Of a stretch of DNA of 53,731 bases, positions 14,560-29,312 are shown piece after piece (within the stretch, counting starts at the first letter, position 1; every line of letters begins with the position of its first letter). Position numbers and translations under genes: made by a program. The stretch comes from a virus (Duplodnaviria; Caudoviricetes). The stretch is from positions 1-53,731 of IMG/VR virus record IMGVR_UViG_3300037071_000543; one strand, written 5' to 3'. The notes under the pieces are model-generated. The model had not been told where the DNA came from and did no database searches. It saw nothing but the letters and a program-made list of their open reading frames with translations.

Positions 14560-14568
14560 GCTTCCTCC

Positions 14569-14799
14569 TCAGACGCCGCTGCGATCGCGGGGTCGTAGCT
14601 CATGCGGTATCGCGGTCTTCGGGACAACGGCTGGCTTCACCAACTCCAGCACCTCCCGCATGGCCGCGATCTTGCCGCGCAAATACTGGCTTTCGCCATA
14701 GGCTTGGTCCGGCTGTTCGAGCCGGGTGCGGGCGGCCTCGATAATCTCCAGCGCCTTGGCCGCGACCTCGCGCCAAGTGTCGGTGTAGGCGTCGATCAT
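14569..14799 (-). CDS. Small conserved protein between portal and scaffold
   Basis: YLRGKIAAMREVLEL motif; ATGA coupling to the portal gene. Confidence 0.65.
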   Translation of the reverse strand: MIDAYTDTWREVAAKALEIIEAARTRLEQPDQAYGESQYLRGKIAAMREVLELVKPAVVPKTAIPHELRPRDRSGV

Positions 14800-17213
14800 G
14801 CTGCCTTTGCCTTCTTCTTCGGCTTGGAGCCGCCGCTGACATAGCCGCCAGAGGAGGTTGGAATCTCGCCGCGCGCCCGGGCCTCCGCCGCGTTCTTCTG
14901 CTCGATCGCCACCTCGGAGGCGAATATCCGCTCCTTCGACTGGTTGTCGAGTTCCTTGCCCGCCAGCATAGCCTCAAGCTCCTGCACGCTCATGTTGAGG
15001 TTGGCGGCCAGCCCGTTCATCTGCGCGTCGTAATGCTTATCAGCGACATACCGCTTGGTCGCATTGTCCTGATTCGATAGCTGGACCTGCAATTCCGCCC
15101 GCTTGATTTCCGCCTCCTTGGCCTCCCTCGCCTGATCGGCGGCCACCTTGGCCGCGACCGCCGCTTCGCTTTCGGCCTGCGCCGCCGCGAGCACCGCGTC
15201 GATTTCGTCGTCGGTCAGCATCACCTCTTCAGCCGGGATCATGTAGGCTTGGAAAATCTTCTTCAGCAGTTCGCGATTGCGCAGCATCGGCCCGAAGATC
15301 GGATGGCCGCCAAGCTGGATGGCGATCACCATGAGATTCTGCGCCTGCAATTCGCGCATCAGCAGCACGCTCGAACCGCGCGCGTCGACCTGATAGTCGC
15401 CCTTGATTTCCTCTTTCGGGTTGAACTGCATGTTCCAGTCGTAGGACCGCCGAATGTCCGGCGTGGTCACATCGTCATCGAAGTTCTTGACGAACGAGCG
15501 GAACACCACATTGGCGGAATTGTGCATCAGCGCGGTGCCGAGCGCCGTCTTCTCGACGTTCTGCGTGCCGACTTCGCCCTGCTGGCCCTGAATGGCCTGC
15601 GGCACCGACGACATCTTGTCGATGAACCGTTCGCAGAGGGCGATGATGTTTATCATGTCCTCCTGCCGGGCCTCGATATGGAATAGCTGAAACGGCGGGT
15701 TCTCCTTCTGGATGCCGTTCTTGGCCCGCCAGACCTTGCGGGGCTTCAGCTTGTAGTCGCCGTCTTCCGGCTCGATGTTCTGCGTGTCGATGATGACCTG
15801 CGGGCCGCTCGACACCCCGGCGTTGTCCATCATGGCGCGGAATGCGCCGTTCAACGCCGACTGCGGATCGCGCAAAAGCGCGGGCATGCCGTAGCCGAAA
15901 ATCGAGGCTTCGTCCTTGATGAGATTGTAGACCGAGTAGATGCACTCGCCGGAATCGTATGGGTAGACGGCGAATTTCAGGATTTCGCCCTGACAGAACC
16001 AGATGCAGACGTTGATTTCGATGAGTGGGTCGATTTCCTCGATCTGCCGCAGCGCCTCCCCGGCGATCGTCTGCACGGTTCCGTCGCGGCTGGAGGTGAG
16101 CATGTGCATGGCGAGCGCCTGCATGTCCTCGGGCTCCAGCGGCCCATAGTATTCGAACACATGGTAGAGGTCGCCCGTGACCTGCTGGGTGGCCGCCCGG
16201 ATGTTGCGAAGCTGTGCGAGGTAGGACGGCGCGGTGGTCGACGGGGCCAGCGTCAACAGTCGCCGGATCGCATCCTTGTCGAAGCCCTGTAGGTGCTGAA
16301 GCTGGCGGATCATGCGCCGGTTCATCAAGTGGCGCTCGAACGTGCCGTTGCCGTTCTCGATGTCGGTGGCGTCCATGTCGGGGAAGAATCCCCAAATGTC
16401 GACATCGCGGAATGCGGGTTGCTGGCCGGTCGAGATGTCGAGCCGGTACTCGCCTGACTCCTCATCGGTCTTCCAGCCGCGCCGCACCTTGTCGCCAGTG
16501 ACCGGACCCTTGGTCACCCCGGTGCCGAGCTTGACGCTGCAATCGATCTGCTTGCGCTTGATCGTCTGGTAGCGGCATTCGGTCAGTTGGTCGTCAATCT
16601 CCTTCTCCATGAGGTCCGACCGCTTGCGGGCCTCTTCCAGCTTGGCCGACAGCATGGCCGCCGCCGCCTTCGCCTCATCAGCCTCCGCCTGCTTTTCCTG
16701 CGCCTGCGCGGCGAGCGCCTGCTGCTCCTCCGGGGGAGCTTCCGCGCCGATTTCCTGCGCTTGCGCCGCCTGATCCTGCGCGGCCTTGGCCTGCTCGATC
16801 TTCTCGCGCGCCGCCGCTGCGGCGGCCTCCACCTTGTCCGACAGCGTGGGTACGGGCGTCGGCGAAATGCCCCAGTTCTTCTCGTCGGTGGGGAATAGCA
16901 AGTCCTTCAGCCGGGCCGCCATCGCGTCGGTCTTGTCCCGGGTGACGTTGATGAAAAGCTGCGACCGCTCCTCCTCGAACAGGACCTTGGCGGTCGCCAT
17001 GTCATAGCGCCCGTGATACTGCTCAAGATCTTCAATCCAGCGGGTTTCGAGCGATTGCCGCTTGCCGATGCGGGAATTGACCTCCGCCTCCAGCCGCCCG
17101 ACGATCGCCTTCAACTGGTCCTTCGACGGTGGCCGAATCTCCTGCTGGCTGCGAATGCTTTGCGGCAATTGCGGATTCGACGCCGGGGGGTTTTGAACCA
17201 TCATGTCGGCCAT
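14796..17213 (-). CDS. Portal protein
   Basis: About 805 aa; LFINVTRDKT, LGTGVTKGP, FFPDMDA, SIFGYGMP, RAMMDNAG, IKGDYQVDARG. Likely start MADMM at 17213. Confidence 0.85.
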   Translation of the reverse strand: MADMMVQNPPASNPQLPQSIRSQQEIRPPSKDQLKAIVGRLEAEVNSRIGKRQSLETRWIEDLEQYHGRYDMATAKVLFEEERSQLFINVTRDKTDAMAARLKDLLFPTDEKNWGISPTPVPTLSDKVEAAAAAAREKIEQAKAAQDQAAQAQEIGAEAPPEEQQALAAQAQEKQAEADEAKAAAAMLSAKLEEARKRSDLMEKEIDDQLTECRYQTIKRKQIDCSVKLGTGVTKGPVTGDKVRRGWKTDEESGEYRLDISTGQQPAFRDVDIWGFFPDMDATDIENGNGTFERHLMNRRMIRQLQHLQGFDKDAIRRLLTLAPSTTAPSYLAQLRNIRAATQQVTGDLYHVFEYYGPLEPEDMQALAMHMLTSSRDGTVQTIAGEALRQIEEIDPLIEINVCIWFCQGEILKFAVYPYDSGECIYSVYNLIKDEASIFGYGMPALLRDPQSALNGAFRAMMDNAGVSSGPQVIIDTQNIEPEDGDYKLKPRKVWRAKNGIQKENPPFQLFHIEARQEDMINIIALCERFIDKMSSVPQAIQGQQGEVGTQNVEKTALGTALMHNSANVVFRSFVKNFDDDVTTPDIRRSYDWNMQFNPKEEIKGDYQVDARGSSVLLMRELQAQNLMVIAIQLGGHPIFGPMLRNRELLKKIFQAYMIPAEEVMLTDDEIDAVLAAAQAESEAAVAAKVAADQAREAKEAEIKRAELQVQLSNQDNATKRYVADKHYDAQMNGLAANLNMSVQELEAMLAGKELDNQSKERIFASEVAIEQKNAAEARARGEIPTSSGGYVSGGSKPKKKAKAA

Positions 17214-17215
17214 AA

Positions 17216-17965
17216 TCAGTATCCTGCCCTGTGATCGGCGACACCCATGCCAGCGCCGTGGCCGTTCGGCTTCATCGGCGGCAGCGTGGCCACCTTGTTC
17301 CACGTCAGCCACAGATACCGCATGTCATCCATGAGGTGATCGGCTTGGTGAGCGACGATCTTGCCCTTTTCGTCGCGCTGGTAGACCCGGTATTCCGCCT
17401 TGAAGTTCTGGAGCGTCGAGAAAATCTTAAGCTGCCCGAGCACCAAGGCCTGCCAGACCGCGACCAGCCCGGCCTCCAATTCGTTGTTGGCGTCGATCAG
17501 CTTGAGCCCGAGCGACACATATTCCGCCTTGAGTTGGGTGCCGTCCTTCTGGCTGGAGCCCTGCGATGCCGGGTCGATCGCGCCGCGAATCCACTCGCCG
17601 CGCGTCTTGATCGCCGCCGCATGGACGACCGGAAGCTGCTGGCCCTTATAGTGCTCCGAGTACAGGTAGATGATCCCGTCGACCGGGTTTTGCGCGCCCC
17701 ACAGCGCCGCCGTCCGGTTCCACCCTACATCCAGCGCATAGGCCTTCTTCCAGCCCCACGGGATCGCAAACGGCTTGACCTCGATGTCGCCGATCGGAAC
17801 CGGATAGATCACGCCAGCGCCCATCGACGGCTCGCCCCTCGATCGCGCATCCCGCAGGTACGGCGGGGTCGAGTCCAAGAGTTCGCGCTTGCCCTTCTCG
17901 TCCAAGTGGGGAACGTCATCCCACCCGGCCTGCACGATGTATCTGGACGGGGCGACTTCAGGCAT
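17216..17965 (-). CDS. terL: Terminase large subunit, C-terminal part (end of ATPase/lid plus RNase H-like nuclease)
   Basis: AGWDDVPHL...RDARSRGEPSMGAGVIYP, ALDVGWNRTA (catalytic Asp), AIDPAS, DHLMDDMRY match the C-terminal half of P22 gp2-type TerL. Own GGAG RBS. Confidence 0.88.
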   Translation of the reverse strand: MPEVAPSRYIVQAGWDDVPHLDEKGKRELLDSTPPYLRDARSRGEPSMGAGVIYPVPIGDIEVKPFAIPWGWKKAYALDVGWNRTAALWGAQNPVDGIIYLYSEHYKGQQLPVVHAAAIKTRGEWIRGAIDPASQGSSQKDGTQLKAEYVSLGLKLIDANNELEAGLVAVWQALVLGQLKIFSTLQNFKAEYRVYQRDEKGKIVAHQADHLMDDMRYLWLTWNKVATLPPMKPNGHGAGMGVADHRAGY

Positions 17966-17968
17966 CAG

Positions 17969-18184
17969 TCACTCCACCAACTTCGGAAGACTCATCCCGC
18001 CACCCGACCCTATGAGGTCGAGCAGCAGCAGGATCACGATGATGCACAGCACCACGATGGCCGCCACCTTCAAAATCCTCTGCGGCGGCTCCGGGATGAA
18101 TTGATCCACCACATACACGAATAGGTAGTAGAGAATGCCCATAATCAGCAGGTAAATGATGAGGTTGATAATCGCGCCTATCAT
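17969..18184 (-). CDS. Small two-TM membrane protein (possible holin)
   Basis: MIGAIINLIIYLLIMGILYYLF...PEPPQRILKVAAIVVLCIIVILLLL. Confidence 0.6.
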   Translation of the reverse strand: MIGAIINLIIYLLIMGILYYLFVYVVDQFIPEPPQRILKVAAIVVLCIIVILLLLDLIGSGGGMSLPKLVE

Positions 18185-18195
18185 CACAGCACCTC

Positions 18196-21100
18196 TCAGT
18201 TGTTCATCCAGCGTGACATGACCAGCATCAGGCCCTCGCGCTGATCTTCCCTGCCGTCGACCACGCCGGGCCGGGAGGCGAACACGCCACCTGCCCGCAT
18301 GAACATCGGCTGGCCGGTCGGGAACACACGGGCCACCCATTCGACCTCGATGGAGTCCTCTGGCGCGGTGAGCGCCTGCATCTGCACCCCGGTGAGGGTG
18401 ACTTGGACGTGGTAGCGAATGAGGATGGTGACGGTGCCATACTCAGTTTGCAGCGCGTCGATCGTTGACGCGCCCTGCGGCGGATCGTTTTTGTACGGGT
18501 GGGTTGGGGACAGAAGGCCCTGTAGTCCCCACTTCCAAGCGAGGTAGCCGTCGATCTTGGGATAGACGCTCTCGGTCAGATCGGCGTTGTAGAGCACCAA
18601 CTCCGCGACATCGAAATCGCCGGTATCGGCCTGCGAATCGGGGTCGCGGCCACCCAGCCCGTATTCCCCTCCCATGCCGCCCGGCAGGCCGGAAGACGCC
18701 GCGACTGTTCCGTTCTTGCGAAATTCGGTGATGGTGCCGTCCGCGTTGCCGCCGTAAATCTTCCAGTCTTGGTTCGAGGTTGAACCAGTAAGGGCCGACA
18801 CGGTATCGGCGAAGGCGTCCTGCCCGTCCGGCGAAAAGCCGACATAGAGGTTTTTCGGGGCCATCGCGGCAAAGCAGTAGCCGTCATGCGGGAAGCCGGT
18901 CACGGGGTTCCACTTGCGCACCACGTAGGCCATCGACCATATCGCGTCGGTGAACTCGGCATCGCCGCGCAACCGGCTTTGCAGCGCGGTGAAGCGGACG
19001 ACCGGGCGGCCATTCATCGCGGTTGACCGATAGACCGGCAGCGGCGTGCCGACCATCACGGGATCGAGGCCGATCGCCTCATCCGTCAACGGCCATTCCG
19101 TGACCTCTTCGCCCTCCTCCAGATCGAGCATGGTGGCGTCGAGGTGGACCCTAAGCCCGCCGATCAGGCTGGGCCGCCACGGCAGGTAGCCGAATCGGAT
19201 GTTGTTGAAGGTGATGAACGACATCGAGCCCGGGCTCACCGTCATCGCGACCATGTAGTTGCCGGACGGGTAGACCTCCATGAAGCCCTGCGTGACCGCG
19301 TGGGTGATGCCCAAGCTCATCGTCAACTGGAAGCCGGTGATGAAGACGCGCCGGTTCTCGACCGCCTGCACGTCGCCGACCGAGGCGACCAAGAAGTTGC
19401 CGGTGATGACATCGGCGTCGACATCGACACTGACATCCGCGATCACGTCGCCACGGCTCATCGTCATCTGATTGCCGGTGACGAAGACCTCCCCGGCAGA
19501 AGGCGTCGAGACGGTGACCGTGCCCGATGCGATCGTCATCAAGTTAGTGGTCAGCAGGCCGAGCGTCTGCGGCCCGGTGACGAAATCGTCAAAGAAATTG
19601 CCGATCGAACCGCCGCCGATAATCCCGGTATCGGTCGAGGTGAGTGTGGCCCCGATCGCTCCCGAAGCCATCAAGGTGCCGTTCTTGAACACATACCAGT
19701 TCGATCCGACCGCCGCGAGGCGCAGCACATCGCCGTCGACATAGCCGCCATCGCCCGAGTTATAGATTTGCGCGATGGTGCCGAGCCCCGCCGTCTCCCG
19801 CCAGACTTCGACATGCCCGAAATTGATAGCCGTGGTCGCGCCGTGGAAGAGGCCGACGAACTGATTGTGGTCCGGCATCCGGCAGCACGCGCCGGGGCCG
19901 TAAATCAATTCATCTCCGATCGCGGTGAACTCGATGAAGTGGTCGAGCACGCCGGGCGATGGGTTGCACTTGTACGCGGAGCCGGACTCATCGACGGAGG
20001 TCGAGCGCAACTGGTTGCCGCTGACCGCCAGCCCGGCGAACCGGCCATCATGCACCCACGTTCCGCCGCTTGAGGCGATCGGCGTCGATTCGAGTGGGCC
20101 GTCCGCCCGGTCGAAATGGTCGTAAAACAGCGGATCGGCGAAGGTGGTAAGTGGCCCGGCCTCGAAATTCTCGGCGACCTCGCCGATGAATCCTCGACCG
20201 ACAATGCCGGTGCCGACATCGTTGAGCGCCGCGCCGATCGCCCCGCTCGACATCACCGCGCCGTCATTCTTGAGCGTCCAGTTGGAGCCCTCGCATTCAA
20301 GCCGCAGGAGGTCGCCGGTCGCCACCGCAGCCGCGCCCGAGGTGTAGAGGGTGACGAACGTGCCAGCCACCCGGCGAGCCACTACGACCTGCCCAGCGCC
20401 CGCGCCTTCGTTGCCGACATGGAAGCCGACGAAGTTGTTGCGATCGGCCAACCGGCAGCAGACAAACGATTGCGCGCCAACGTGCGAGATGGAGCCAGCC
20501 AGCCCGGCAGGCACGATGCACTCGACATAGTGGTCCGCCGATCCGACCGATGGCGTCTTGTAGGCGGAGCCGACGCTATCGGTGACCCCCGCGTACAGAA
20601 TGTTGTTGAACACCGACAGCCCGTGGACGATCGCGCTATCCCATACCCAGTTCCAACCGCCCGAGGCGGTCTTGCACGGCGCTTCCTCCAGCCAGCCGTC
20701 CGCCCGGTTGAAGGTGTCGGCGAAGGTGGTTTCCGTGCCAGCCGAGACCGAGACGTTGTTGAGGCTCATCGTCAGCAGGTTGGTGGTGAGTGTCGCGCCG
20801 CTCGCCGCGCCGCTGGTCAGCCCGGCCTCGAAATTGTCGAGGAAAGGATTCTGCACCGCCTGCCGGTTATGGATGCCGACCCGCGTGCCGATCCAGCCAG
20901 AGGCCGACAGCGCCATCGAGACGATCAGCACGGCATTCAGCCGGACCTCGATCTGATCCCCGGCAATCCGCGCCTCGATCGTGTCGCCCGAGGCAATGCC
21001 GTGATTGGTGTTGTAGATCGAGGTGAAGGTGCCGCCCGTCACCCGGTAGATTTGCAGGTTCGCGCCAGCGGTTCGCAGGCCGATGTACTTGTCCCGGCTT

Positions 21101-21984
21101 TCGCCGCGCAGCACGACGAAGCTGTTCGCGCTCGCATCCCGGGAGGTCCACGAAACCCAGTGGTTGACGTTGCCGATGTCGAAGTAGGTGAGCGACCCGC
21201 CGCTGGTGGTGTTGGCCGCCGCCCACTGGTTTCCAGAAATGCCGCCCGTGTTGACGCCGAGCCCGTCCGTCGCCCACGTCTGCCCGCCCGAGGTTGTCGG
21301 AGTGTTTTCGATCCAGTTGTCGGCGCGGTTGAAGTTGTCGGTGAAGGTGGCCGCGCCCTTGTCGATGCCGCCGACCGATGGCGAGGAGGTCGACATCGCC
21401 ACTTGCGAGCCGGTGGCGTTGACGCTGATTGCGCTGGCCAGCGACCCGAACTCAAGATCGTCGGCGAAGGTCGCCACCGTGGTGCGCGCCACCACCCCGG
21501 TATCCGTGGAGGTGAGCGTGCCGTTGCCGATCGCCCCGGAGGTGACGACCGTGCCGTTCTTGCGCAGTTGCCAGTTAGTGCCCGAGCACTCCAGCCGCAG
21601 CACGTCGCCAGCCGCGACAGCGCCGCCAGCCGAGGAATACAAGTTCGACAGCGAGCCGCCGACGCGCCGGTAGACCTCGATCACCGAGCCGTCATTGCGG
21701 ACTCCGACGAAGTTCGAACGATCGGCCAACCGGCAGCAGACAAACGGGCCGCTCGAAATCGAGGTGGTGGCGACCTTGTACTGGGCATAGTGGTCCGCCG
21801 TGCCCTGATTGACCGACTTGTACGCGGTCCCGGTCGAGTTCGAGGTGTTGCAGCGAAGCTGGTTGGTGTTGATCTGGAGCCCGGCAGCGACCAGCCCGTC
21901 ATGGGTCCAGTCGCCACCGCCCGACGCCGTGGCGGAGGCTTCCAGATTGGCATTGGCCCTATCGAAACTGTCGGTGAAGGGCAT
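18196..21984 (-). CDS. 1262-aa virion fibre/adhesin with four tandem beta-sandwich repeats and a LamG/ConA-like C-terminal domain
   Basis: Four domains begin FxDxF(D/N)RA(N/D). Short xTGxxxxxSxGxV stalk repeats. WRPSLIGGLRVHLDA...GYLAWKWGL...HPYK domain. Confidence 0.7.
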   Translation of the reverse strand: MPFTDSFDRANANLEASATASGGGDWTHDGLVAAGLQINTNQLRCNTSNSTGTAYKSVNQGTADHYAQYKVATTSISSGPFVCCRLADRSNFVGVRNDGSVIEVYRRVGGSLSNLYSSAGGAVAAGDVLRLECSGTNWQLRKNGTVVTSGAIGNGTLTSTDTGVVARTTVATFADDLEFGSLASAISVNATGSQVAMSTSSPSVGGIDKGAATFTDNFNRADNWIENTPTTSGGQTWATDGLGVNTGGISGNQWAAANTTSGGSLTYFDIGNVNHWVSWTSRDASANSFVVLRGESRDKYIGLRTAGANLQIYRVTGGTFTSIYNTNHGIASGDTIEARIAGDQIEVRLNAVLIVSMALSASGWIGTRVGIHNRQAVQNPFLDNFEAGLTSGAASGATLTTNLLTMSLNNVSVSAGTETTFADTFNRADGWLEEAPCKTASGGWNWVWDSAIVHGLSVFNNILYAGVTDSVGSAYKTPSVGSADHYVECIVPAGLAGSISHVGAQSFVCCRLADRNNFVGFHVGNEGAGAGQVVVARRVAGTFVTLYTSGAAAVATGDLLRLECEGSNWTLKNDGAVMSSGAIGAALNDVGTGIVGRGFIGEVAENFEAGPLTTFADPLFYDHFDRADGPLESTPIASSGGTWVHDGRFAGLAVSGNQLRSTSVDESGSAYKCNPSPGVLDHFIEFTAIGDELIYGPGACCRMPDHNQFVGLFHGATTAINFGHVEVWRETAGLGTIAQIYNSGDGGYVDGDVLRLAAVGSNWYVFKNGTLMASGAIGATLTSTDTGIIGGGSIGNFFDDFVTGPQTLGLLTTNLMTIASGTVTVSTPSAGEVFVTGNQMTMSRGDVIADVSVDVDADVITGNFLVASVGDVQAVENRRVFITGFQLTMSLGITHAVTQGFMEVYPSGNYMVAMTVSPGSMSFITFNNIRFGYLPWRPSLIGGLRVHLDATMLDLEEGEEVTEWPLTDEAIGLDPVMVGTPLPVYRSTAMNGRPVVRFTALQSRLRGDAEFTDAIWSMAYVVRKWNPVTGFPHDGYCFAAMAPKNLYVGFSPDGQDAFADTVSALTGSTSNQDWKIYGGNADGTITEFRKNGTVAASSGLPGGMGGEYGLGGRDPDSQADTGDFDVAELVLYNADLTESVYPKIDGYLAWKWGLQGLLSPTHPYKNDPPQGASTIDALQTEYGTVTILIRYHVQVTLTGVQMQALTAPEDSIEVEWVARVFPTGQPMFMRAGGVFASRPGVVDGREDQREGLMLVMSRWMNN

Positions 21985-22011
21985 GCGTCGAGCCCTCCCG
22001 GGAGCCTTCGA

Positions 22012-22449
22012 TCAGACGATCCTGATAATGGCGTTCGATGCGTCGGCGGCTGGGAAGATCACCGTGAAGTCGCCAGCCGACGATGACTTGTCGGACCCGA
22101 ACGACAGCACGACCACCGAAGGATCGGCCACGGGCGTGGTCACCGTGTCGTTGTAGATCATCGCGCCATTGGCGGTGATCGTCGCGGTCGACCATGTGGT
22201 GTCGGCGAAGTCGGCGATCGCCGTCGACCCGGAGAGCGTCACGGTCTGCCCGGTGAGCACGTTGCCGGTCGCCGTGTAGCCGGTGCCCGAGACCTCGCCG
22301 GATGCCGTGTAGGCCCCGGTGGTGCCGTCGAGCGTGGCCCCCGAGGTGTACAGCGCCATCTTGAAGGTGTTGCCGCCTGTCCCGAGATTGTGCATCCCGA
22401 GCATCACGTCGCGCTTGAAATTCTGGCAGATAGCTTGCGTGATCGCCAT
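22012..22449 (-). CDS. Conserved phage structural protein (MAITQA...FKMALYTS family)
   Basis: FKMALYTSGATLD, EVSGTGYTATG, FGSDKSSSAGDFTVIFPAADASNAIIRI; a widespread phage virion family. Confidence 0.7.
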   Translation of the reverse strand: MAITQAICQNFKRDVMLGMHNLGTGGNTFKMALYTSGATLDGTTGAYTASGEVSGTGYTATGNVLTGQTVTLSGSTAIADFADTTWSTATITANGAMIYNDTVTTPVADPSVVVLSFGSDKSSSAGDFTVIFPAADASNAIIRIV

Positions 22450-22450
22450 C

Positions 22451-22714
22451 TCACTTCCCCTTTTCGAGCATCAGGTGAGTCTGATAGGCGCGGTCGGATG
22501 CTATCGCCCGCTTGATGCCGTCGAGCACGACGACCTTCATCTGCTCGCGGAAGGCATGGGCTTGGTCGCGGATCGGTTGCGGCGCGGTGTCCGCCACCCG
22601 GATCAGCTTGTCAACGATGCGCTCCGCGAAGAACTCGGGGGGATGTCCACCGTTCGAGGTGGTGACGACTTGGACGGTGCCGACAGCCATCGGCTGTTCG
22701 TCGGTCCAACTCAT
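22451..22714 (-). CDS. Conserved small phage protein
   Basis: VVTTSNGGHPPEFFAER...IRDQAHAFREQ; a family usually found next to the MAITQA-type gene. Confidence 0.65.
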   Translation of the reverse strand: MSWTDEQPMAVGTVQVVTTSNGGHPPEFFAERIVDKLIRVADTAPQPIRDQAHAFREQMKVVVLDGIKRAIASDRAYQTHLMLEKGK

Positions 22715-23268
22715 AGGATCAGCGCCTTCATGGCCGCGATGCGGTTTTCGAGGTCAGCCTGCTCTTTCGCGATCTTGTGCTCCAGCGCGTTGAGCTTGGA
22801 CTCACGATCCTCCAGCGTCCAGCGCACCTGCGCCGCCAGCTTCTCCTGCTCGACCACCGTCCGCTCGCGCTGCTCGATTTCGTGGCGCTTGGCCGCGAGG
22901 GTGGCGAAGGCTTCCGCGAGTTCGCCGTCCTTCTTGGCGTACCCGGCCAGCATCTCGGAGTCCTGTTCGTCGGCCAGCTTGATCTTGCGGGTGAGGTCCG
23001 CCTCCCGCTTGTCCAGCCCCTCGCGGGCGAACGCGATGTCGGCCTCATGCTTGTCGAGTTCTTCCGTCTTGGCGGTGAGCACCTGCTCGCGCTCATCCAG
23101 CTTTTTGGCCAGCCCGTCGAGCTTCTGCTGCGCCGCGATCATGCTCGCCATTGCGTTCTGGATTTCGACAATACGGGCTTCCGTCGCTTGCGGATCGGAG
23201 ACGATAGCGAGCAGCTTGTCGAGCGAATCGGTGGCCTTGACTGCTTCCCCCCGGGTGCCGCTCATCAT
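22711..23268 (-). CDS. Coiled-coil protein
   Basis: Heptad-rich E/K/A/L sequence; coupled ORF. Confidence 0.65.
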   Translation of the reverse strand: MMSGTRGEAVKATDSLDKLLAIVSDPQATEARIVEIQNAMASMIAAQQKLDGLAKKLDEREQVLTAKTEELDKHEADIAFAREGLDKREADLTRKIKLADEQDSEMLAGYAKKDGELAEAFATLAAKRHEIEQRERTVVEQEKLAAQVRWTLEDRESKLNALEHKIAKEQADLENRIAAMKALIL

Positions 23269-23269
23269 G

Positions 23270-23575
23270 TCAGAGGCTCCCGATGACGGCGATCTTGAAG
23301 CTCCTGCCGGGTGGCACCCCGGTGAACCGGGTTTCGCCCGCAGCCATGCGCTGCGCCGTGGTCACTGCGGTGGGATTGACGCCCCAAGCCACGCAGCAGG
23401 CTTCCTGCGCATGAACCATCAGGAAGGCGGTGCGCTCATTGAAGGCGTTGGACTGGGTGGAAGCGCCGGTCACGACGACCGTTTGCTCCGCGTTGGCGGG
23501 CTCGACCCCAGCCGCGACCCCGTAGCCGCCAAGATCGCGGGCGAGGTTGGCGTACTCCGTCACGAACAGCGGCAT
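23270..23575 (-). CDS. Small beta-rich putative structural protein
   Basis: GGAGG RBS; LFVTEY...GVNPTAVTT...AAGETRF. Confidence 0.6.
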   Translation of the reverse strand: MPLFVTEYANLARDLGGYGVAAGVEPANAEQTVVVTGASTQSNAFNERTAFLMVHAQEACCVAWGVNPTAVTTAQRMAAGETRFTGVPPGRSFKIAVIGSL

Positions 23576-23631
23576 GCCCGACCTCCCTCATCGATGTCTG
23601 TGAGGGCGGAGAATATTCCTCATATCGGTTG

Positions 23632-23653
23632 AAAACACAATCGCTTGTGTTTT
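23632..23653. promoter_or_regulatory. Perfect 9-bp inverted repeat upstream of the virion operon
   Basis: AAAACACAA-TCGC-TTGTGTTTT in an AT-rich intergenic gap. Confidence 0.5.
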
Positions 23654-23766
23654 TGGCCTCCGGGATCGATTCCAGCCCGACAATTACCCGGACGTTACCG
23701 CTGGGGTGGCACCTATGCGATCCTTGCATGGCGGGGCGTGTCAGCCATCCAGCAAGGGCGCATAGC

Positions 23767-24069
23767 TCAGAATTTGAAGTCGACCCCCTTGCTGCGGTCC
23801 TTCAGCCGGACGGCGAGGTCGCCGATCGCCCCGTTGAGCGCGCCGATCATCTTGGTCACGTCATCCTCGGTGTACTCGTACAGCGAGCGGTTGCTCAGGT
23901 TGCCCATGTTCTTGATGCCACCGAGCGTCCGCGTCATGCGGAATGCGCCAATGCGCAGGAACTTCTCGCGCTTGGTCTCGGTCCTGCCGGGATGCAACAC
24001 CACGGGCGGCTCTGGCGGTGGGCTCTCATGCTGGGGAGGGACTTCCTCCGTGATCTTCCTGCGTGGCAT
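23767..24069 (-). CDS. Conserved small helical protein (ETKREKFLR...GNLSNRSLYEYT family)
   Basis: Recognisable conserved motif of unknown function; GGGAGG RBS before ATG 24069. Confidence 0.6.
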   Translation of the reverse strand: MPRRKITEEVPPQHESPPPEPPVVLHPGRTETKREKFLRIGAFRMTRTLGGIKNMGNLSNRSLYEYTEDDVTKMIGALNGAIGDLAVRLKDRSKGVDFKF

Positions 24070-24082
24070 GTCATCCTCCCTG

Positions 24083-24256
24083 TCAGTGCGCCTGTCGGCG
24101 CTTGTGAAGCGCGTCTTCCTTGCCCCGCGCATAGGCCCTTCGAAGGGCGTCGGCGATCTTCTCGATGCCGTCTTCAGCGTCATCGGTCAGGTTGTCGTAG
24201 ATGTCCTTCGCCTCGATCGCATTCCAAGCCTCCCGGATTTCCTTCTTCATGCCCAT
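24083..24256 (-). CDS. Hypothetical 57-aa protein (not in track)
   Basis: MGMKKEIREAWNAIEAKDIYDNL...; TGATG coupling. Confidence 0.5.
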   Translation of the reverse strand: MGMKKEIREAWNAIEAKDIYDNLTDDAEDGIEKIADALRRAYARGKEDALHKRRQAH

Positions 24257-24486
24257 CAGATCACCAAGCGCAAATCGAGTTCCTGCCCGGTGACCGAGCG
24301 CGGCGGATCGTGATGCAGCAGTTCGCGGTCGAACTCCCCGAGCCGGTCCTCATCGTGCGTCTGCGGCGAAATCAGCGGAATCAGGCAGGTGACCGGCGTT
24401 CCTGATTCGGTCTCGCCTTCCCACACCCGGGCGCTGGCCCCGTTGACCATAACCACCTTGTCCGTCGAGGCGATCGTGATCTTCAT
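24256..24486 (-). CDS. Hypothetical protein
   Basis: Coupled ORF; ARVWEGETESG motif. Confidence 0.6.
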   Translation of the reverse strand: MKITIASTDKVVMVNGASARVWEGETESGTPVTCLIPLISPQTHDEDRLGEFDRELLHHDPPRSVTGQELDLRLVI

Positions 24487-25058
24487 TGCTCGGGCTGCTC
24501 CTGCTCGTCCGCCTGCCGGTAGCGATCCTCACCCTCCAGAAACATCAGGTAGGCATGCGCCCGGGTGACCACCTGTTCGAGCGAGCCATGCGGATCGGCC
24601 TCCTGCGCCATGCGGAGTGCCATCTCGCGGCGGAAGTCGGCGCGATCGCGCTGCCGCCGCTCCTCCTCACCGGCTTGACTGAACACCCCGACATTGGCCC
24701 GGTTGACAAATTGTTGCTTGGCCGCGTCCGCGTAGCTGCCCGGGCCGCCCTTGCCCTCGACGGAGAGCGGAAGAGGCGGCGGCATGCGCAGGAAGTCGCC
24801 TTCAGCGTGCGCCGTGGCGTCCATGCTAGGGTCTGTCGGCTGCGGGCCGGTCACCCCGTAGGGCTCATCGAAGTCGCTATCCTCCATGTCGGGAGGCGGC
24901 GGAGGCGGCGGGTCCATCGGAGCCGTCAGGTCCACCTGCGTTTTGGTAGGCTCGATATACGGGATCGGCTTTGAGGTAAGCGCCTCATCCTCATCGAACT
25001 CGGGCAGCTTGTAGCCCGGCATTCCCGTCACTGGGTCCTTCACGAATGGCATGGTCAT
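24483..25058 (-). CDS. Pro-rich hypothetical protein
   Basis: GGGAGG RBS upstream of ATG 25058/25052. Confidence 0.55.
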   Translation of the reverse strand: MTMPFVKDPVTGMPGYKLPEFDEDEALTSKPIPYIEPTKTQVDLTAPMDPPPPPPPDMEDSDFDEPYGVTGPQPTDPSMDATAHAEGDFLRMPPPLPLSVEGKGGPGSYADAAKQQFVNRANVGVFSQAGEEERRQRDRADFRREMALRMAQEADPHGSLEQVVTRAHAYLMFLEGEDRYRQADEQEQPEQ

Positions 25059-25118
25059 CCTCCCTTGGAATTTCGTACTACACCCGAGTGCGCGATTATT
25101 CAATCCGTGATCCCGGCA

Positions 25119-25385
25119 CTATGAAATCCTGAATGGCCCCTCATCCGCCAACTGCATCACCGGGACGATCGACCAATCCTCCGCCAGCATGTCCGTCTGG
25201 CTGGCCAGCCACGGCACCAAATCGCCCTGCACGGTTCGCATGAAGATGTACGGCAAGGTCATCTTCGAGTTCTCATCCGGGACTTGCAGCGCGAGGTACA
25301 TCCCCTTGCCGTTCCACCCCTTGCGGCACACCAAACCGCCATCCCGCAGCCGATCGAGCGCCCAGCCAAAGTCGGTCTTTTCCAT
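25119..25385 (-). CDS. tad2: DUF2829 / Tad2-family anti-defence nucleotide sponge
   Basis: DFGWAL..L..G..VCRKGWNGKGMYL...PWLASQTDMLAEDW is the DUF2829 signature. GAGGAGG RBS. Confidence 0.85.
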   Translation of the reverse strand: MEKTDFGWALDRLRDGGLVCRKGWNGKGMYLALQVPDENSKMTLPYIFMRTVQGDLVPWLASQTDMLAEDWSIVPVMQLADEGPFRIS

Positions 25386-25396
25386 GTCCGTCCTCC

Positions 25397-25630
25397 TCAA
25401 TTCAGCCGCGCGCCCGGCAGCGCCGGGACTCCCGCGAGCGTTCCACCTGCCAGCACAAGCTCGACCCCGGCGTCGGTCAGCTTGAAGGTAAGCCCGTAAT
25501 CCTCATCATCGACCGGCACGCAGAGCCCGGCCCGGTAGGCCGCGCGCCATTGTTCCGCCCGTTCCTCCGAGCATTCCTCATCCGCGATGAACTCCGCGAG
25601 CACACGCTCGACCAGCAAAGCCTCATCCAT
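25397..25630 (-). CDS. Hypothetical protein
   Basis: Coupled ORF with GAGGAGG RBS. Confidence 0.5.
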   Translation of the reverse strand: MDEALLVERVLAEFIADEECSEERAEQWRAAYRAGLCVPVDDEDYGLTFKLTDAGVELVLAGGTLAGVPALPGARLN

Positions 25631-25862
25631 CGGTTTCCTCCTCGAACCGGGCCAGCGCCCGGCGCAGCGCGTCCGCCTTGATCTGCGTCTCGACGCTGAT
25701 AAGCCCGCCGTTGCCGCCCTTCCACTGTGTGCCGATCATGATCCCATTGTCATCGAACGAGATGGATTCGACCAGTTCCTTGGCCGCGTGCCATAGCTGG
25801 CCGACCGACTCCGCCCACAGCGACACCTCATCCGGGTTCATGCCCTCGGGCGTCAGCGTCAT
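25623..25862 (-). CDS. Hypothetical protein
   Basis: ATGA-coupled start MTLTPEG. Confidence 0.55.
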   Translation of the reverse strand: MTLTPEGMNPDEVSLWAESVGQLWHAAKELVESISFDDNGIMIGTQWKGGNGGLISVETQIKADALRRALARFEEETDG

Positions 25863-26311
25863 CGCAATTCCTCGAACGCAGCCCAGTCGAACACGAAGCA
25901 AGGCTCCATATCGCCCGGCGATCCGTTGCGATCCTTCCGCCCGGCCCAAATGACACGATCGCTATGCAGGTTCATCCGGGTCCAGCGGATGACGCCATCA
26001 TCGAAGCGAACGGCCAGACGGGACGGAGTGCCGCTGCACTGCTTGAGCGCCCAGCACGATCGCACCTTGAGCACCGACAACCAATACCCGTCACCGTCGC
26101 GATAGCGCCAGTTGCGGCCTTTAGCCTCAAGGTAGAAATCGACTGGCGGGTGATCGCCGCAGCCACGCCTGAGCATGGCGAAGTCAGGCCCGTAGGACAG
26201 GGCGTTGATCTTCTCGAAATCGTAGCCCCAAGCCTCCGCGCACTCCTTGGCGATCGCCCGCTCGACGGCCTTGGTTGCGTCGTTTTCGAATAGCGGACGC
26301 GCCGTCATCAT
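25859..26311 (-). CDS. PD-(D/E)XK-like nuclease
   Basis: GPDFAM...FYLEAKGR motif. Confidence 0.6.
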   Translation of the reverse strand: MMTARPLFENDATKAVERAIAKECAEAWGYDFEKINALSYGPDFAMLRRGCGDHPPVDFYLEAKGRNWRYRDGDGYWLSVLKVRSCWALKQCSGTPSRLAVRFDDGVIRWTRMNLHSDRVIWAGRKDRNGSPGDMEPCFVFDWAAFEELR

Positions 26312-26628
26312 GTGTCAGCCAATTCGAAGGCTGCAACGATTTGCGCGACGTTGACCGACGCCGTGGTGCGGCTGGTTGGCGCAAACAGGAGCCGTCCCGG
26401 GCTGTCCCGCAGCCAGACATCCTCCCCGGTCTTCATGGTGACATCGATCCACAGCGAACCATCAGCCGCCAGATGAACCGCTTCGATACACTCGATCGCG
26501 AGCGTGTGCCCGGTGATAAGCAAAAGGCCGAACGACCAGCAGTCATCCATCATGCGAGGGATAAACCAAGCAGGAAGCAGCCTCTTCGCATCGATCCCCT
26601 TTGTGAGATATTCCTCACTCACATCCAT
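26308..26628 (-). CDS. Hypothetical protein
   Basis: Start MDVSEEY; coupled to the downstream gene. Confidence 0.55.
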   Translation of the reverse strand: MDVSEEYLTKGIDAKRLLPAWFIPRMMDDCWSFGLLLITGHTLAIECIEAVHLAADGSLWIDVTMKTGEDVWLRDSPGRLLFAPTSRTTASVNVAQIVAAFELADT

Positions 26629-26645
26629 CACATCCCCCTTTGCCG

Positions 26646-26960
26646 TTATTGCGGACGGCCACTGCCGTTGAGATTCACCACCTTCTTGGCGGCCTCCATA
26701 GCGGCCTCCGCCTCGGCCACCTCCTTGTCGTAAAGGCGCTTTTCGACGCGCCATGCCAGTTCGCCCTTCAGCGCGGCGATGTCCTGCTCCAAGCAGACCC
26801 TCCGGTGCTCAAGCTCCAGCTTGGCCAGTTCCCGCTTCAGGGAGCTATCCGGCGTGTCTTCGATCTGTTCCTTGGCTTCCCAACCGCTACCGAACTCTTC
26901 CCCCCATTGCCGGTCGATGTATTTGTCCGCTGCCCGGATCATATCTGCCAGTACGCTCAT
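26646..26960 (-). CDS. Hypothetical coiled-coil protein
   Basis: ATGA coupling; GAGG RBS. Confidence 0.55.
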   Translation of the reverse strand: MSVLADMIRAADKYIDRQWGEEFGSGWEAKEQIEDTPDSSLKRELAKLELEHRRVCLEQDIAALKGELAWRVEKRLYDKEVAEAEAAMEAAKKVVNLNGSGRPQ

Positions 26961-27148
26961 TGTTCCTCTCCTCTTTTTTCTAGTATCGCAATCTGCTTCT
27001 TAAGACCATCGACCAGCTTGCGGGCCTCCTCCGGTATGATCTTGAAGGTGATAGACACCTCATCGTGCTTTCCTGATAGTGTCACCATGATAACATCGAC
27101 GAAGATGCTTGCCTTAATATTGATGCCGCTATCCGGTCCTCTTGCCAT
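26957..27148 (-). CDS. Hypothetical protein
   Basis: Start MARGPDS overlaps the TerL-N stop (TGATG). Confidence 0.55.
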   Translation of the reverse strand: MARGPDSGINIKASIFVDVIMVTLSGKHDEVSITFKIIPEEARKLVDGLKKQIAILEKRGEEQ

Positions 27149-27936
27149 CACATCATCCCTAGTTGTGGTCGATCGCTTGCCATTTGGAATTGCTGCACGG
27201 TCTCGGTGATCCCCTGAAGCGGGGTGAAGGTGAGGAGCATGATGCCGTTGGTCGTCATCAGGCGAATGATGCACTCGCCGTAGACATCCATCGGGCATTC
27301 CTCATCCGCCCAAATCACATGCTGGGACGTGCCCTCGAACGAGCCTCGACCTTGCTCGTAGGATTTCATACCCAAGGTCGACCAGCCGCCCGACACATGC
27401 CGGACCTTCACCAAGTCGGTGAGGTCTTCGACGCCGCGCTTCCACGTCACCCTGCCTATCAGATTGCCCGGGACCATGCCGGTTCCGGCGAGTTGCTTGC
27501 GAGTGCCATCGTAGGCCACAGGGCCGAGCAGGGCGGCCTGCACGATGTCGCGGGTGGATTCGTTCTTCTTGCCGCACGCCCACGCCCTGACAGGCCCGTC
27601 AAAGCGCCTGCCGTCCCACCAACCGGGATAGAGCCCGGTGAGGTGCGCGGTCACCTCGAACGCCCCGGTGATCGTCTTGCCTACACGATTAGCTGCCAAA
27701 AAGCAGCGTTCCCGGTAACTGGCCCCAGCCTCGAAGAACTCGACATGCTTCGGGTAGTGACGCCGGGCATAGACAAGCACGGTGCCGTCGAGGTCGAGCC
27801 GGTCTTCATCCGGGAAGAGTTCGAAGAACTGGCGCTGCTGGAGCCGTCGCGACATGGTGGCCGCGAGCGCGGCGTAGTGCTGCCGGGTTTGCAGCGGGAG
27901 GAGGTCCATGTCCTCCAGAGGCAGGAGGTCCAGCAT
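27148..27936 (-). CDS. terL: Terminase large subunit, N-terminal ATPase part
   Basis: YPKHVEFF, Walker A AANRVGKT, KSYEQGRGSFEG, Walker B VIWADEE and coupling motif TFTP, as in P22 gp2. Stops 21 aa after TFTP. Confidence 0.9.
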   Translation of the reverse strand: MLDLLPLEDMDLLPLQTRQHYAALAATMSRRLQQRQFFELFPDEDRLDLDGTVLVYARRHYPKHVEFFEAGASYRERCFLAANRVGKTITGAFEVTAHLTGLYPGWWDGRRFDGPVRAWACGKKNESTRDIVQAALLGPVAYDGTRKQLAGTGMVPGNLIGRVTWKRGVEDLTDLVKVRHVSGGWSTLGMKSYEQGRGSFEGTSQHVIWADEECPMDVYGECIIRLMTTNGIMLLTFTPLQGITETVQQFQMASDRPQLGMM

Positions 27937-27937
27937 G

Positions 27938-28207
27938 TCACTGGACGGTCATCGGGACGAAGCTGACCATCTCTCCGAGTTCGCCCTTTTGGGCCGCGTC
28001 GTGGACTACCCGCTGCATCGCGTTGCGAAAGCCGTCATCGCCGAAGGACCGCGCCACCCCGAGCGCCACGATGAAGTCGACCGGCACCGGCTCGTTCGCT
28101 TCGTGGTCGGGAATCGTGATGAAGCACTGCCCTTTGCGGATTACCATCTTGATGTCGCCCGGCTCTGGTTCGGGCGGGTGGTCGTATTTAGTCACCGTCG
28201 CTTCCAT
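27938..28207 (-). CDS. Hypothetical protein
   Basis: ORF ending 1 nt before the TerL-N start. Confidence 0.55.
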   Translation of the reverse strand: MEATVTKYDHPPEPEPGDIKMVIRKGQCFITIPDHEANEPVPVDFIVALGVARSFGDDGFRNAMQRVVHDAAQKGELGEMVSFVPMTVQ

Positions 28208-28458
28208 CGTCTCTCATCCCCATTCGAAGGAAGCGGCAGGGAGAGAAAGGCCCTAAACTCCCTGCCGCCGATTCCCATCACGGACTTTCCTAGCCGCGTC
28301 ACCTTGACCCCAACAATAAACTGGCACGAGGAGCCAGCGGGAGGCGGGGAGGTGACTTTTCGTTGTTGGGCTGGCCGCTCGCCCTCAAAATGCGCCTCCC
28401 TACCTACCGAGTGAATGCCGATTCCCATCCGGCCACCGTACCACGAAACTGCCAGAGG

Positions 28459-28896
28459 TCAATGCTTCACGCCAGCCTTGATCGATCGCACCTCCGCGTG
28501 GATCGCCGCCATTTCGAAGCGGATTTCGTCATCCGTCATCGAACTGTAATTGTGGTTGAAGGTCGAGACGTTGACGCTCCGATCGATGAACAGCCCAAAC
28601 AGTTTGGCCTTGCACGCCCCGGCTTGGACGGCGGCTGACACCTGCCCGAGCTTGAGCGCGTAGGCTCGATCCTCATCGAACTGCGCGGCCATCGAATCGA
28701 TCGTCACCTCGACCCGCGCCAGCGCCTTGCCTTGGAGTTCGGCGATCCGCGCGACGACATTGCCTTTTCTAGCCAGCCTCGACGCATGTTGCATGGATGG
28801 TCGATACCCTGCCAGCGCATATGCCTCATCCAATGTCTTGCCGGTGACGCGGAACTGACAGAACGATTCCTGTCTGGCATTTTTGAGAATTGGCAT
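28459..28896 (-). CDS. terS: Terminase small subunit
   Basis: LKNARQESFCQ...EAYALAGY...ASRL...VVARIAELQ HTH and KAKLFGLF. Likely start ATG 28896. Confidence 0.8.
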   Translation of the reverse strand: MPILKNARQESFCQFRVTGKTLDEAYALAGYRPSMQHASRLARKGNVVARIAELQGKALARVEVTIDSMAAQFDEDRAYALKLGQVSAAVQAGACKAKLFGLFIDRSVNVSTFNHNYSSMTDDEIRFEMAAIHAEVRSIKAGVKH

Positions 28897-29071
28897 CAGA
28901 CATCCTCTGAGTTTGCCAAGCGGTGAGCGCCGCGTGATGCTGATCGACGTTCCGGCTTGGATTTTTCCATGCGAATTTGAACATCGCCATTTTCTGCTCT
29001 TCGGCAAGTGCCTCCCGGTTGGGATAGCTTTGAACGAATACGTCCCATTTGGCTTTGTGTTCTGGCGTCAT
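28826..29071 (-). CDS. Hypothetical protein
   Basis: GGAGGGG RBS; overlaps the terS start. Confidence 0.4.
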   Translation of the reverse strand: MTPEHKAKWDVFVQSYPNREALAEEQKMAMFKFAWKNPSRNVDQHHAALTAWQTQRMSDANSQKCQTGIVLSVPRHRQDIG

Positions 29072-29100
29072 TTTCCCCTCCGGTTCATCGAAAAAGTGGC

Positions 29101-29312
29101 TGGACCATGTGGTTCAACCTCCCCTCATAGAGGGGGAGGGTTGTGAACCAGTCCACAAGGGTGGTCTCCGGTTTCGATTTTGGTCCAACCAATGTTGCTA
29201 TGTAAATATGTGAAAACATTAACAAATCTATCGATGCTGGTTCAACCTAAACCCCTGAACCAAAAAGGGCTGGACAAATCGCTTTTGGTTCACACTTTAT
29301 GCGGGTGAACCA
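29101..29312. repeat. Candidate replication origin with TGGTTCA/TGAACCA repeats
   Basis: Exact heptamers at 29110, 29144, 29238, 29256, 29286 and 29306, variants at 29101 and 29181, around an AT-rich core at about 29190-29230, at the helicase 3' end. Confidence 0.55.

Follow-up and report, generated by a model that had tools for sequence, protein, structure and literature searches.

Analyzing IMG/VR virus record IMGVR_UViG_3300037071_000543, a linear stretch of 53,731 nt that is 72% complete by CheckV (hereafter the window, meaning this whole stretch of DNA), we found the coding information for the large terminase (TerL) to be divided between two open reading frames (ORFs), TerL-N and TerL-C, which lie in the same orientation at a distance of 9,182 nt (27147 down to 17966). 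We propose that this large terminase is probably made as two polypeptides that are joined by strand complementation, and that the gap between the two genes has turned into a cargo site. TerL-N would supply the ATPase core up to motif III. TerL-C would supply the nuclease and, ahead of it, the next beta-strand and the remainder of the ATPase domain; its first strand would enter the ATPase sheet beside the P-loop strand of TerL-N, yielding one functional TerL. The relatives of the window point to soil and to Hyphomicrobiales-type hosts as its setting. The packaging genes are arranged on the minus strand in the order TerS, an 89-aa ORF, TerL-N, 17 co-oriented ORFs, TerL-C, and portal, an order that is shared with relatives:

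28459 to 29007, minus strand: TerS, the small terminase subunit (phrog_51, E 1.4e-9), with homologues upstream of TerL-N in relatives
27938 to 28207, minus strand: 89-aa ORF between TerS and TerL-N, its end 1-2 nt off the TerL-N start
27148 to 27936, minus strand: TerL-N, the ATPase core, 262 aa, with the C-terminus ...QQFQMASDRPQLGMM followed by the stop
17216 to 17965, minus strand: TerL-C, the end of the ATPase (residues 1 to ~47) and an RNase H-like nuclease, 249 aa, with the N-terminus MPEVAPSRYIVQAGWDDVPHL
14796 to 17312, minus strand: portal (phrog_332, phrog_156, phrog_1216), with a likely start at 17213, directly after the TerL-C stop

Instead of one polypeptide with ATPase and nuclease, we found two ORFs that each have their own start and stop. 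TerL-N matched the Pfam family Terminase_6N (PF03237) at E 6.2e-15 and 55.9 bits (cut-off 22), its residues 78-249 aligning to profile positions 1-148 of 215, and its translation contains the motifs AANRVGKT, VIWADEE, and TFTP, which we take to be Walker A, Walker B, and motif III, respectively. TerL-C matched Terminase_6C (PF17289) from residue 85 onward at 23.1 bits (cut-off 22.6), and the nuclease domain of P22 gp2 (4dkw) aligned to its residues 48-220 at E 3e-15; a profile built from split forms matched 4dkw at E 1.8e-36. Upon searching the record with Terminase_6N, Terminase_6C, TerL_ATPase, and Terminase_3, we obtained no second terL. An initial annotation, made by a model from the letters of the window, had placed the two co-oriented ORFs at these positions, with the three ATPase motifs in one and the nuclease Asp motifs in the other; all of this was recovered here, including the Asp residues (D79 and D131 are invariant among split forms). 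Its tally of about 16 intervening co-oriented genes was right as to orientation, the count here being 17 ORFs.

The break falls inside the ATPase domain. In a six-frame search, the Pfam ATPase model was divided between the two ORFs, with model positions 1-149 at 27187-27705 (TerL-N) and positions 156-210 at 17798-17962, corresponding to residues 2-56 of TerL-C; at 11.8 bits (E 0.0023), the latter match was weak. The P22 nuclease-domain construct is preceded by ~47 residues of TerL-C, and TerL-N ends ~12 aa beyond the helix that follows TFTP. These data support the initial annotation in placing the break within the ATPase region instead of at its linker to the nuclease. Between TFTP and a second motif, DVPH, we counted 37-45 aa in the nine fused forms in which both motifs were found and 41-48 aa in the four split forms measured. 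As these distances are alike, it is a variable loop that holds the cut, and no structural element has been lost. Whether TerL-N was used alone or as a 43-row profile, searches of PDB sequences returned nothing at E up to 0.01, so that the break is not mappable by sequence onto a solved full-length structure. Both new ends are tidily coupled to their neighbors, as had been described before: the TerL-N stop overlaps the following ATG (TGATG), and the ORF of a small membrane protein stops 3 nt ahead of the TerL-C ATG, which has a GGAG of its own 6 nt upstream.

Both halves carry the marks of conserved function. We aligned 43 split forms and found D211, E212, E213, T238, and P239 of TerL-N to be invariant, while G86, K87, and T88 of Walker A were kept in at least 90% of the rows; in TerL-C, D79, D131, H210, and R216 were invariant, and D209 and D213 were kept in at least 90%. 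Pairwise dN/dS estimates (Nei-Gojobori, among close relatives) gave a median of 0.115 for TerL-N (15 pairs, range 0.086-0.178) and of 0.153 for TerL-C (70 pairs, range 0.055-0.259), values that are rough because dS was near saturation (~1-1.6, with values from ~0.7 to 2.8 and one pair undefined), yet are still far under 1. The codons flanking the junction behaved similarly, with 0.175 for the last 40 codons of TerL-N and 0.132 for the first 47 codons of TerL-C. By these measures, both halves are under purifying selection, and the relaxed selection that the initial annotation had named as a counter-sign was not seen.

Using co-folding of TerL-N and TerL-C, in which each chain was given its own 43-row alignment, we obtained ipSAE values of 0.75, 0.76, and 0.72, compared to 0.00 for the best of three controls, with a partner pLDDT of at least 77 and a contact agreement between runs of at least 73%. 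Of 80 solved complexes, 58 attained the mark against which we read these values, as did 2 of 110 mismatched pairs; this calibration is rough since custom alignments were used here. The predicted interface comprises residues 53-87 and 238-252 of TerL-N and residues 3-21, 29, 37, and 40-48 of TerL-C, and the contacts predicted with the highest confidence (76:8, 78:10, 80:12, and 82:14) make up a parallel in-register ladder in which the TerL-C strand SRYIVQAGW (~7-15) is predicted to pair with the P-loop strand of TerL-N (76-82). The strands of ASCE ATPases are ordered 5-1-4-3-2; the TerL-C strand would then be strand 5, and the cut would separate it from strand 4, which carries motif III. The model suggests that a normal TerL fold can accommodate the two halves, which is short of showing that they bind. 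The initial annotation had foreseen a two-chain motor assembled by fragment complementation, and comparison and modeling support this core idea as regards the separate chains, the cut ATPase, and the co-fold of N with C.

The same cut occurs in many relatives. From bacterial and archaeal genomes, one for each species, we collected 593 stretches encoding a relative and classified the best 79 of them (loci are designated by L numbers below), of which 46 were split at the same site, 25 were fused, and 8 had only the N half inside the locus. The spacers of the split bacterial-genome loci ranged from overlapping codons up to ~4 kb. Split isolates include Aminobacter aganoensis DSM 7051 (spacer of 1.8 kb) and Aminobacter sp. 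UC22_36 (4.0 kb, on a complete chromosome), and further split loci were found in Fulvimarina endophytica, Aureimonas sp. Leaf454, three Azospirillum, Sphingopyxis flava, and Acetobacter musti, as well as in Vibrio galatheae, Halomonas and relatives, and Acidovorax. A full-length portal gene followed TerL-C in all five isolate loci that we checked (L038, L039, L041, L043, and L046).

Among viral contigs, IMG/VR yielded the N half at 9 loci and the C half at 25, and eight other viral contigs share the cut with spacers of 2.9-12.2 kb. In the clade of the window (72-84% identity), the spacers measure 4.7, 7.5, 8.8, 8.9, 11.2, 11.5, and 12.2 kb, and in L007, a relative at 60-62% identity, the spacer is 2.9 kb. 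Every viral contig with TerL-N and more than ~5.3 kb of downstream DNA also has TerL-C. The split N proteins share a conserved tail, and the C proteins share a conserved start, M-[PG]-E-[VI]-x-x-S-R. More distant viral contigs encode a single fused ORF (L029, L030, L032, and L033), two ORFs with an ATGA or GTGA stop/start overlap (L035 and L028), or two ORFs with short spacers of 0.2 and 0.55 kb (L009 and L034, respectively). Because the stop and start codons overlap in L035 and L028, excision or splicing is ruled out for these adjacent forms. Hence, the expectation of the initial annotation that related phages would share the breakpoint with a variable spacer was borne out, and, judged by these sequences, the window is the long-spacer extreme of a widespread split rather than a one-off oddity.

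An exhaustive HMMER search with TerL-N in 1.84 billion cluster representatives returned 2,797 matches, and classification of the best 150 gave 69 N-only proteins (ending at most 25 aa from the break), 63 fused proteins, and 18 unclear ones. Around 27 of the 69 N-only proteins contain insertions of 117-608 aa. We scanned three of these insertion-bearing proteins, of which P0030 matched Intein_splicing (47.9 bits) and P0051 matched Hint_2 (30.9 bits), both above the cut-off. In P0004, P0030, and P0051, the inserted 125-608 aa follow the Walker A region and hold intein, Hint, or LAGLIDADG domains, with P0004 just below the cut-off. As N-only TerL proteins contain intein or Hint domains, the split and an intein are combined in some lineages. 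In a library clustered at 90% identity, the best 120 of 2,635 matches were all 236-283 aa long, the search being limited to proteins of 144-459 aa.

GenBank phages are more distant, the closest being 40-60% identical. Six of the eight GenBank phage records that we inspected were fused (Rhizobium phage RHph_N3_2, EBPR podovirus 1, MW202478, CV-1-33, StenR_269, and Phriendly), while the uncultured circular MW202785 is split at this site, with two coding sequences (CDS) 133 nt apart that are both labeled 'large terminase protein'. Those Rhizobium phages whose TerL aligned right up to the end of TerL-N proved to be fused.

To place the split in the history of the family, we built a FastTree phylogeny from the matched N and C parts of 82 rows (54 split and 28 fused), omitting one-half loci, L035 (whose C half is cut by the contig end), the ambiguous L057 and L089, and second loci on the same contig. 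On this unrooted tree, the split/fused label changed 8 times compared to a mean of 23.6 upon shuffling, with 0 of 500 shuffles as low, and at least 5 of the 8 changes were forced by well-supported branches. As the label changes far less often than in the shuffles, the split state is heritable and old. The window lies inside a group of 31 rows that are all split (support 87), with prophages of both Alphaproteobacteria and Acidobacteriota among them, and the spacers within this group extend from 8 nt (Fulvimarina) through 0.3-4 kb up to the long spacers of the window's clade. The same loop has been cut or re-fused several times; the tree, being unrooted, gives these changes no direction. We suggest that the split would have arisen first as two adjacent, translationally coupled genes, a form that is still common, and that inserted genes would then have piled up at the new intergenic boundary, to 4.7-12.2 kb in the window's clade. 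The gap would thereby have become a cargo site, with a variable accessory block and a conserved block that perhaps has its own promoter.

The assembly of the window held up against contigs from sequencing runs. In X1, a run that possibly represents the source sample, Logan contigs at a depth of ~154-218 covered both junctions: a 9,376-nt contig corresponded to 17279-26654 and an 832-nt contig to 26625-27456, with zero differences. The TerL-C start was additionally bridged by contigs of another study (X4 and X6). No contig joined N directly to C in the four runs, with the limit that contigs drop rare forms. Low-depth contigs of another study contained odd joints, connecting 27804 to 18018 in X4 (depth 2.4) and 20188 to 17233 in X5 and X6 (depth 3-3.6, via 23 letters of other sequence). 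Module rearrangement in related strains, or chimeric assembly, probably accounts for these joints.

Several points weigh against a two-chain terminase. As the record is 72% complete, a second terL could lie outside it, and the co-fold may have passed because the model remembers single-chain TerL folds. The dN/dS values are, as noted, rough. In four genome loci, the N half is followed by 8-10 kb of DNA that lacks a C half. When the whole genomes were searched, three had none at all, and the only C half of the fourth was a distant one (32% identity, far away). As these four loci yielded no partner C half nearby, orphan N halves exist, and they may represent decayed prophages or incomplete metagenome-assembled genomes (MAGs). 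Cultured plaque-forming phages that share this split were absent from the eight GenBank records inspected, and no RNA run was among the sequencing runs that hold the stretch.

We considered four other explanations of the arrangement. The first holds that the two halves are rejoined, by DNA excision, by RNA splicing (of a giant intron or in trans), by a split intein, or by ribosomal bypassing. Herpesvirus UL15 is in pieces that are joined by splicing. Interruption of terL by spliced group I introns is documented with RNA reads for Jug phages (PMC12880540), and an intron-interrupted terL is reported for Bastillevirinae (PMC11878797). Inteins also occur in related N-only TerL proteins (P0030 and P0051), and an HNH-like ORF sits at the same site in a Rhizobiaceae MAG. 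The window resembles the intron cases and UL15 in that terL coding pieces are separated on one strand; those pieces are rejoined as RNA, however, whereas in the window no ribozyme was found, each piece has its own start and stop, and the gap is filled by translated-looking genes. Similarly, intein-containing terminases have insertions in the ATPase region of terL, near Walker A in the TerL-N relatives, and splice to one chain, whereas no Hint or intein family was found in either half of the window, in which the unaligned junction residues number ~14 in total, too few for a split intein. Searches against Rfam gave 0 matches at E up to 1 on both strands of 16500-29500, in line with the initial annotation, which had seen neither intron nor intein; there were no direct repeats flanking the spacer (only short chance-like repeats and repeats internal to the fiber gene), and no recombinase family among the spacer ORFs scanned. 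TerL-C has its own Met or Val start at the same place in 43 of 43 rows, adjacent forms have 4-nt stop/start overlaps, and an N-C contig was missing from all four runs, albeit with the limit on rare forms given above. Excision would, moreover, remove the conserved spacer genes as well. We regard rejoining as very improbable.

A second explanation is that one half packages alone, either with TerL-N as a nuclease-free motor or with TerL-C as a free nuclease, the other half being dispensable or its role being filled by a helper phage. The phi29 motor is nuclease-free, orphan N halves exist in four genomes, where such a reading may apply, and PHROGs contains an N-only family (phrog_31467). Against this, TerL-C contributes a strand to the ATPase sheet in the co-fold, one that the fold appears to require, the Pfam ATPase profile runs on into TerL-C, and both halves are constrained and always occur together in the window's clade where the contig is long enough, which leaves this explanation with a low probability.

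Third, a 9-kb insertion could have broken terL in a defective element, the two ORFs being decaying remnants in a cryptic prophage. That the record is a linear contig of 72% completeness, and that some bacterial genomes have an N half but no detectable C half, would fit such decay. It is hard to reconcile, however, with purifying selection on both halves and catalytic residues kept across 43 split forms, with the inheritance of the arrangement in a 31-row clade across several bacterial phyla, and with the tidy starts, stops, and coupling that have been retained; the X1 depth of ~218 further suggests an abundant element, though depth is no measure of replication. We consider decay very improbable. 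Finally, an assembly or gene-calling artefact, which the metagenomic origin of the contig and the low-depth odd joints in other runs might suggest, has next to no probability, given the same split in independent contigs of several metagenomes and isolate genomes, and given Logan contigs at ~154-218 depth that span both junctions with no difference.

A large terminase in two chains thus remains the probable reading, and its gap holds the following features:

23767 to 27147, minus strand: variable accessory block of ~11 small co-oriented ORFs, few of which have homologues in sister contigs
25859 to 26311, minus strand: PDDEXK_14 phage nuclease, 150 aa (PF24579, E 1.3e-13; also phrog_7141)
25119 to 25400, minus strand: Tad2-like protein, 93 aa (PF11195, E 1.6e-25, whole profile covered)
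23612 to 23640, minus strand: promoter-like motif TTGTGT-N17-AATATT in a 191-nt non-coding gap upstream of p101
23270 to 23575, minus strand: p101, the most widely shared spacer resident
22711 to 23268, minus strand: p185, with homologues after p101 in L003, L014, L038, and L039 and sub-threshold Pfam matches only
22451 to 22714, minus strand: p87, a small protein with homologues in 5 relatives and no family match
22012 to 22449, minus strand: p145 (phrog_644, function unknown, E 8.9e-21), with homologues in sister contigs
18196 to 21984, minus strand: 1,262-aa repeat protein (phrog_2804 'virion structural protein', E 2e-13, residues 17-156)
17969 to 18340, minus strand: small hydrophobic (membrane) protein with a likely start near 18184 and a stop 3 nt before the TerL-C ATG

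With a fiber module and variable accessory genes as its contents, the gap behaves as a cargo site for host-recognition and accessory genes. In the accessory block, the Tad2-like protein is a candidate anti-Thoeris sponge, a function that we read from the family name, and the PDDEXK_14 protein is the sole nuclease-like gene in the gap. Of the conserved residents, p101 has homologues of 49-65% identity in the spacers of L002, L003, L007, L008, L014, L022, L038 and L039 (both Aminobacter), and L069; it has no Pfam or PHROG family, and a protein atlas gave unnamed viral clusters only. The p185 protein reads by eye as a coiled-coil. For p145, the atlas offered the podophage GP4 fiber gp80 as a lead, at a score of 0.86 that is under the reliability mark, and p145 may be fiber-associated. 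The 1,262-aa protein is likely a fiber or other virion protein; its gene contains internal repeats ~570-1300 nt apart and is variable among relatives. Its N-terminal domain recurs at least 4 times (tblastn), and one X1 contig skips 289 nt of the gene (21597-21887), which suggests repeat-number variants. The small hydrophobic protein has homologues in L002, L003, L008, L014, and L022 and sub-threshold Pfam matches only.

The cargo differs among relatives. GDSL esterase domains are frequent in tail spikes that deacetylate surface polysaccharide, and the large spacer gene of L007 (11464-12897), the counterpart of the 1,262-aa protein gene, carries a C-terminal GDSL/SGNH esterase domain (E 1.3e-11). 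In L010/L022, p87 and p145 are located between TerL-C and portal, ~3.7 kb before portal, marking a second insertion point in the packaging module. As it is found after TerL-C in these loci, the block that contains p87 and p145 is mobile.

The initial annotation had raised the possibility that the halves are expressed from different promoters. A general promoter/terminator scan yielded 3 promoter-like and 10 terminator-like sites, no excess over shuffled sequence, and so gave this idea no backing; what speaks for it is the motif TTGTGT-N17-AATATT, which is conserved across 6 relatives, while the surrounding intergenic DNA is poorly alignable. The motif occurs once in the window compared to 0.01 expected, with the pattern having been derived from the same data, and 11 of 129 loci, all of them in the window's clade, have a single copy that is oriented with the coding strand and lies upstream of p101. 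We treat it as a candidate promoter, a lead only.

Upstream of TerL-N, the match of TerS to Pfam Terminase_2 (E 0.0012, 19.9 bits) was under the cut-off of 26.1. The 89-aa ORF has homologues of 33-47% identity at the same position in L002, L003, L010/L022, and L014, and no family match in Pfam or PHROGs. Just upstream of the packaging genes, a 416-aa protein (29297-30547, minus strand) combines an AAA_25 ATPase domain (E 6.3e-18) with a winged-helix region at its C-terminus and is likely a replication or recombination protein.

The arrangement can be set against other genes in pieces. P22 gp2-type terminases (Terminase_6) share with the window TerL the family, the motifs, and the position between TerS and portal, but they are one polypeptide, whereas here the chain is cut in the loop between the helix that follows motif III and the next strand. 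The nrdA gene of Aeromonas phage Aeh1 is reportedly in pieces owing to a free-standing homing endonuclease. Among other phage genes in pieces, split DNA polymerases in OM43 phages and a split nrdD are described (PMC10580990 for the former). As in these homing-endonuclease split genes, an essential enzyme is cut within a domain at a permissive loop, giving two chains that would have to reassemble; in contrast to them, the gap in the window holds up to ~17 genes and not one, the split is clade-wide, and insert-free forms exist. We compared 16 of the spacer ORFs with PHROGs and 10 with Pfam, and none of these matched HNH, GIY-YIG, or LAGLIDADG.

In the Rhizobiaceae MAG mentioned above (L069), an ORF at 13785-14378, upstream of TerL-C (14369-15109), opens with 14 residues that nearly repeat the N-terminus of TerL-C (MPAITESRYLVQAS) and continues HNH-like (HNH_5 at 20.3 bits, below the cut-off of 27.5); going by its sequence, it looks like a homing-endonuclease insertion with target duplication. 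A 50-aa ORF in the 0.2-kb spacer of L009 had been considered as a remnant of a NUMOD4-type homing endonuclease, but Pfam gave only HTH_3.

Among cultured phages, Xanthomonas phage DES1 (L037; OK624832, 31002-33335) likewise has its terL annotated in two parts, a CDS for a 118-aa 'terminase family protein' and one for a 398-aa 'large terminase protein', which are separated by a 165-aa hypothetical ORF. Its breakpoint differs from that of the window, lying in the first third of the ATPase region with one small ORF inserted. Searches of open-access papers and bioRxiv preprints gave no account of a two-gene terL that is cut inside the ATPase domain. The sequences themselves are already in databases, where such proteins are listed as 'terminase family protein' and where PHROGs gives the N-half family as 'unknown function'; the two-chain reading is apparently undescribed in the open-access literature.

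Whether the cut is a selected design, and not just a tolerated accident, is a separate matter, and we find such a design rather unlikely. If true, with one strand of the ATPase sheet carried by the nuclease chain, the motor would become active only after TerL-C is made, so that the split would time terminase assembly, and TerL-C would possibly be driven from the spacer promoter at 23612-23640 together with the fiber block and portal. The boundary would then act as a protected landing site for the swapping of host-range and anti-defense genes (such as the fiber module and the Tad2-like gene) between phages, and the terminase would exist as half-proteins until late infection, perhaps being seen differently by terminase-sensing defenses, of which the initial annotation had named Avs as one that splitting could evade.

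The textbook large terminase is a motor of one chain, and models from structural and single-molecule work presuppose that its ATPase and nuclease are covalently linked. A natural and widespread cut in the ATPase sheet would, if true, reveal where the TerL fold tolerates fission, and it would offer a ready two-piece system for studying communication between the ATPase core, the lid, and the nuclease. Cultured hosts with split-terL prophages (Aminobacter and Azospirillum) allow direct testing. For annotation and marker-gene pipelines, it would mean that a 'truncated' TerL of ~250 aa is possibly half of a working enzyme. For the phages themselves, it would mean that the internal boundary of a split core gene can expand to a multi-kilobase cargo site for fiber and anti-defense genes.

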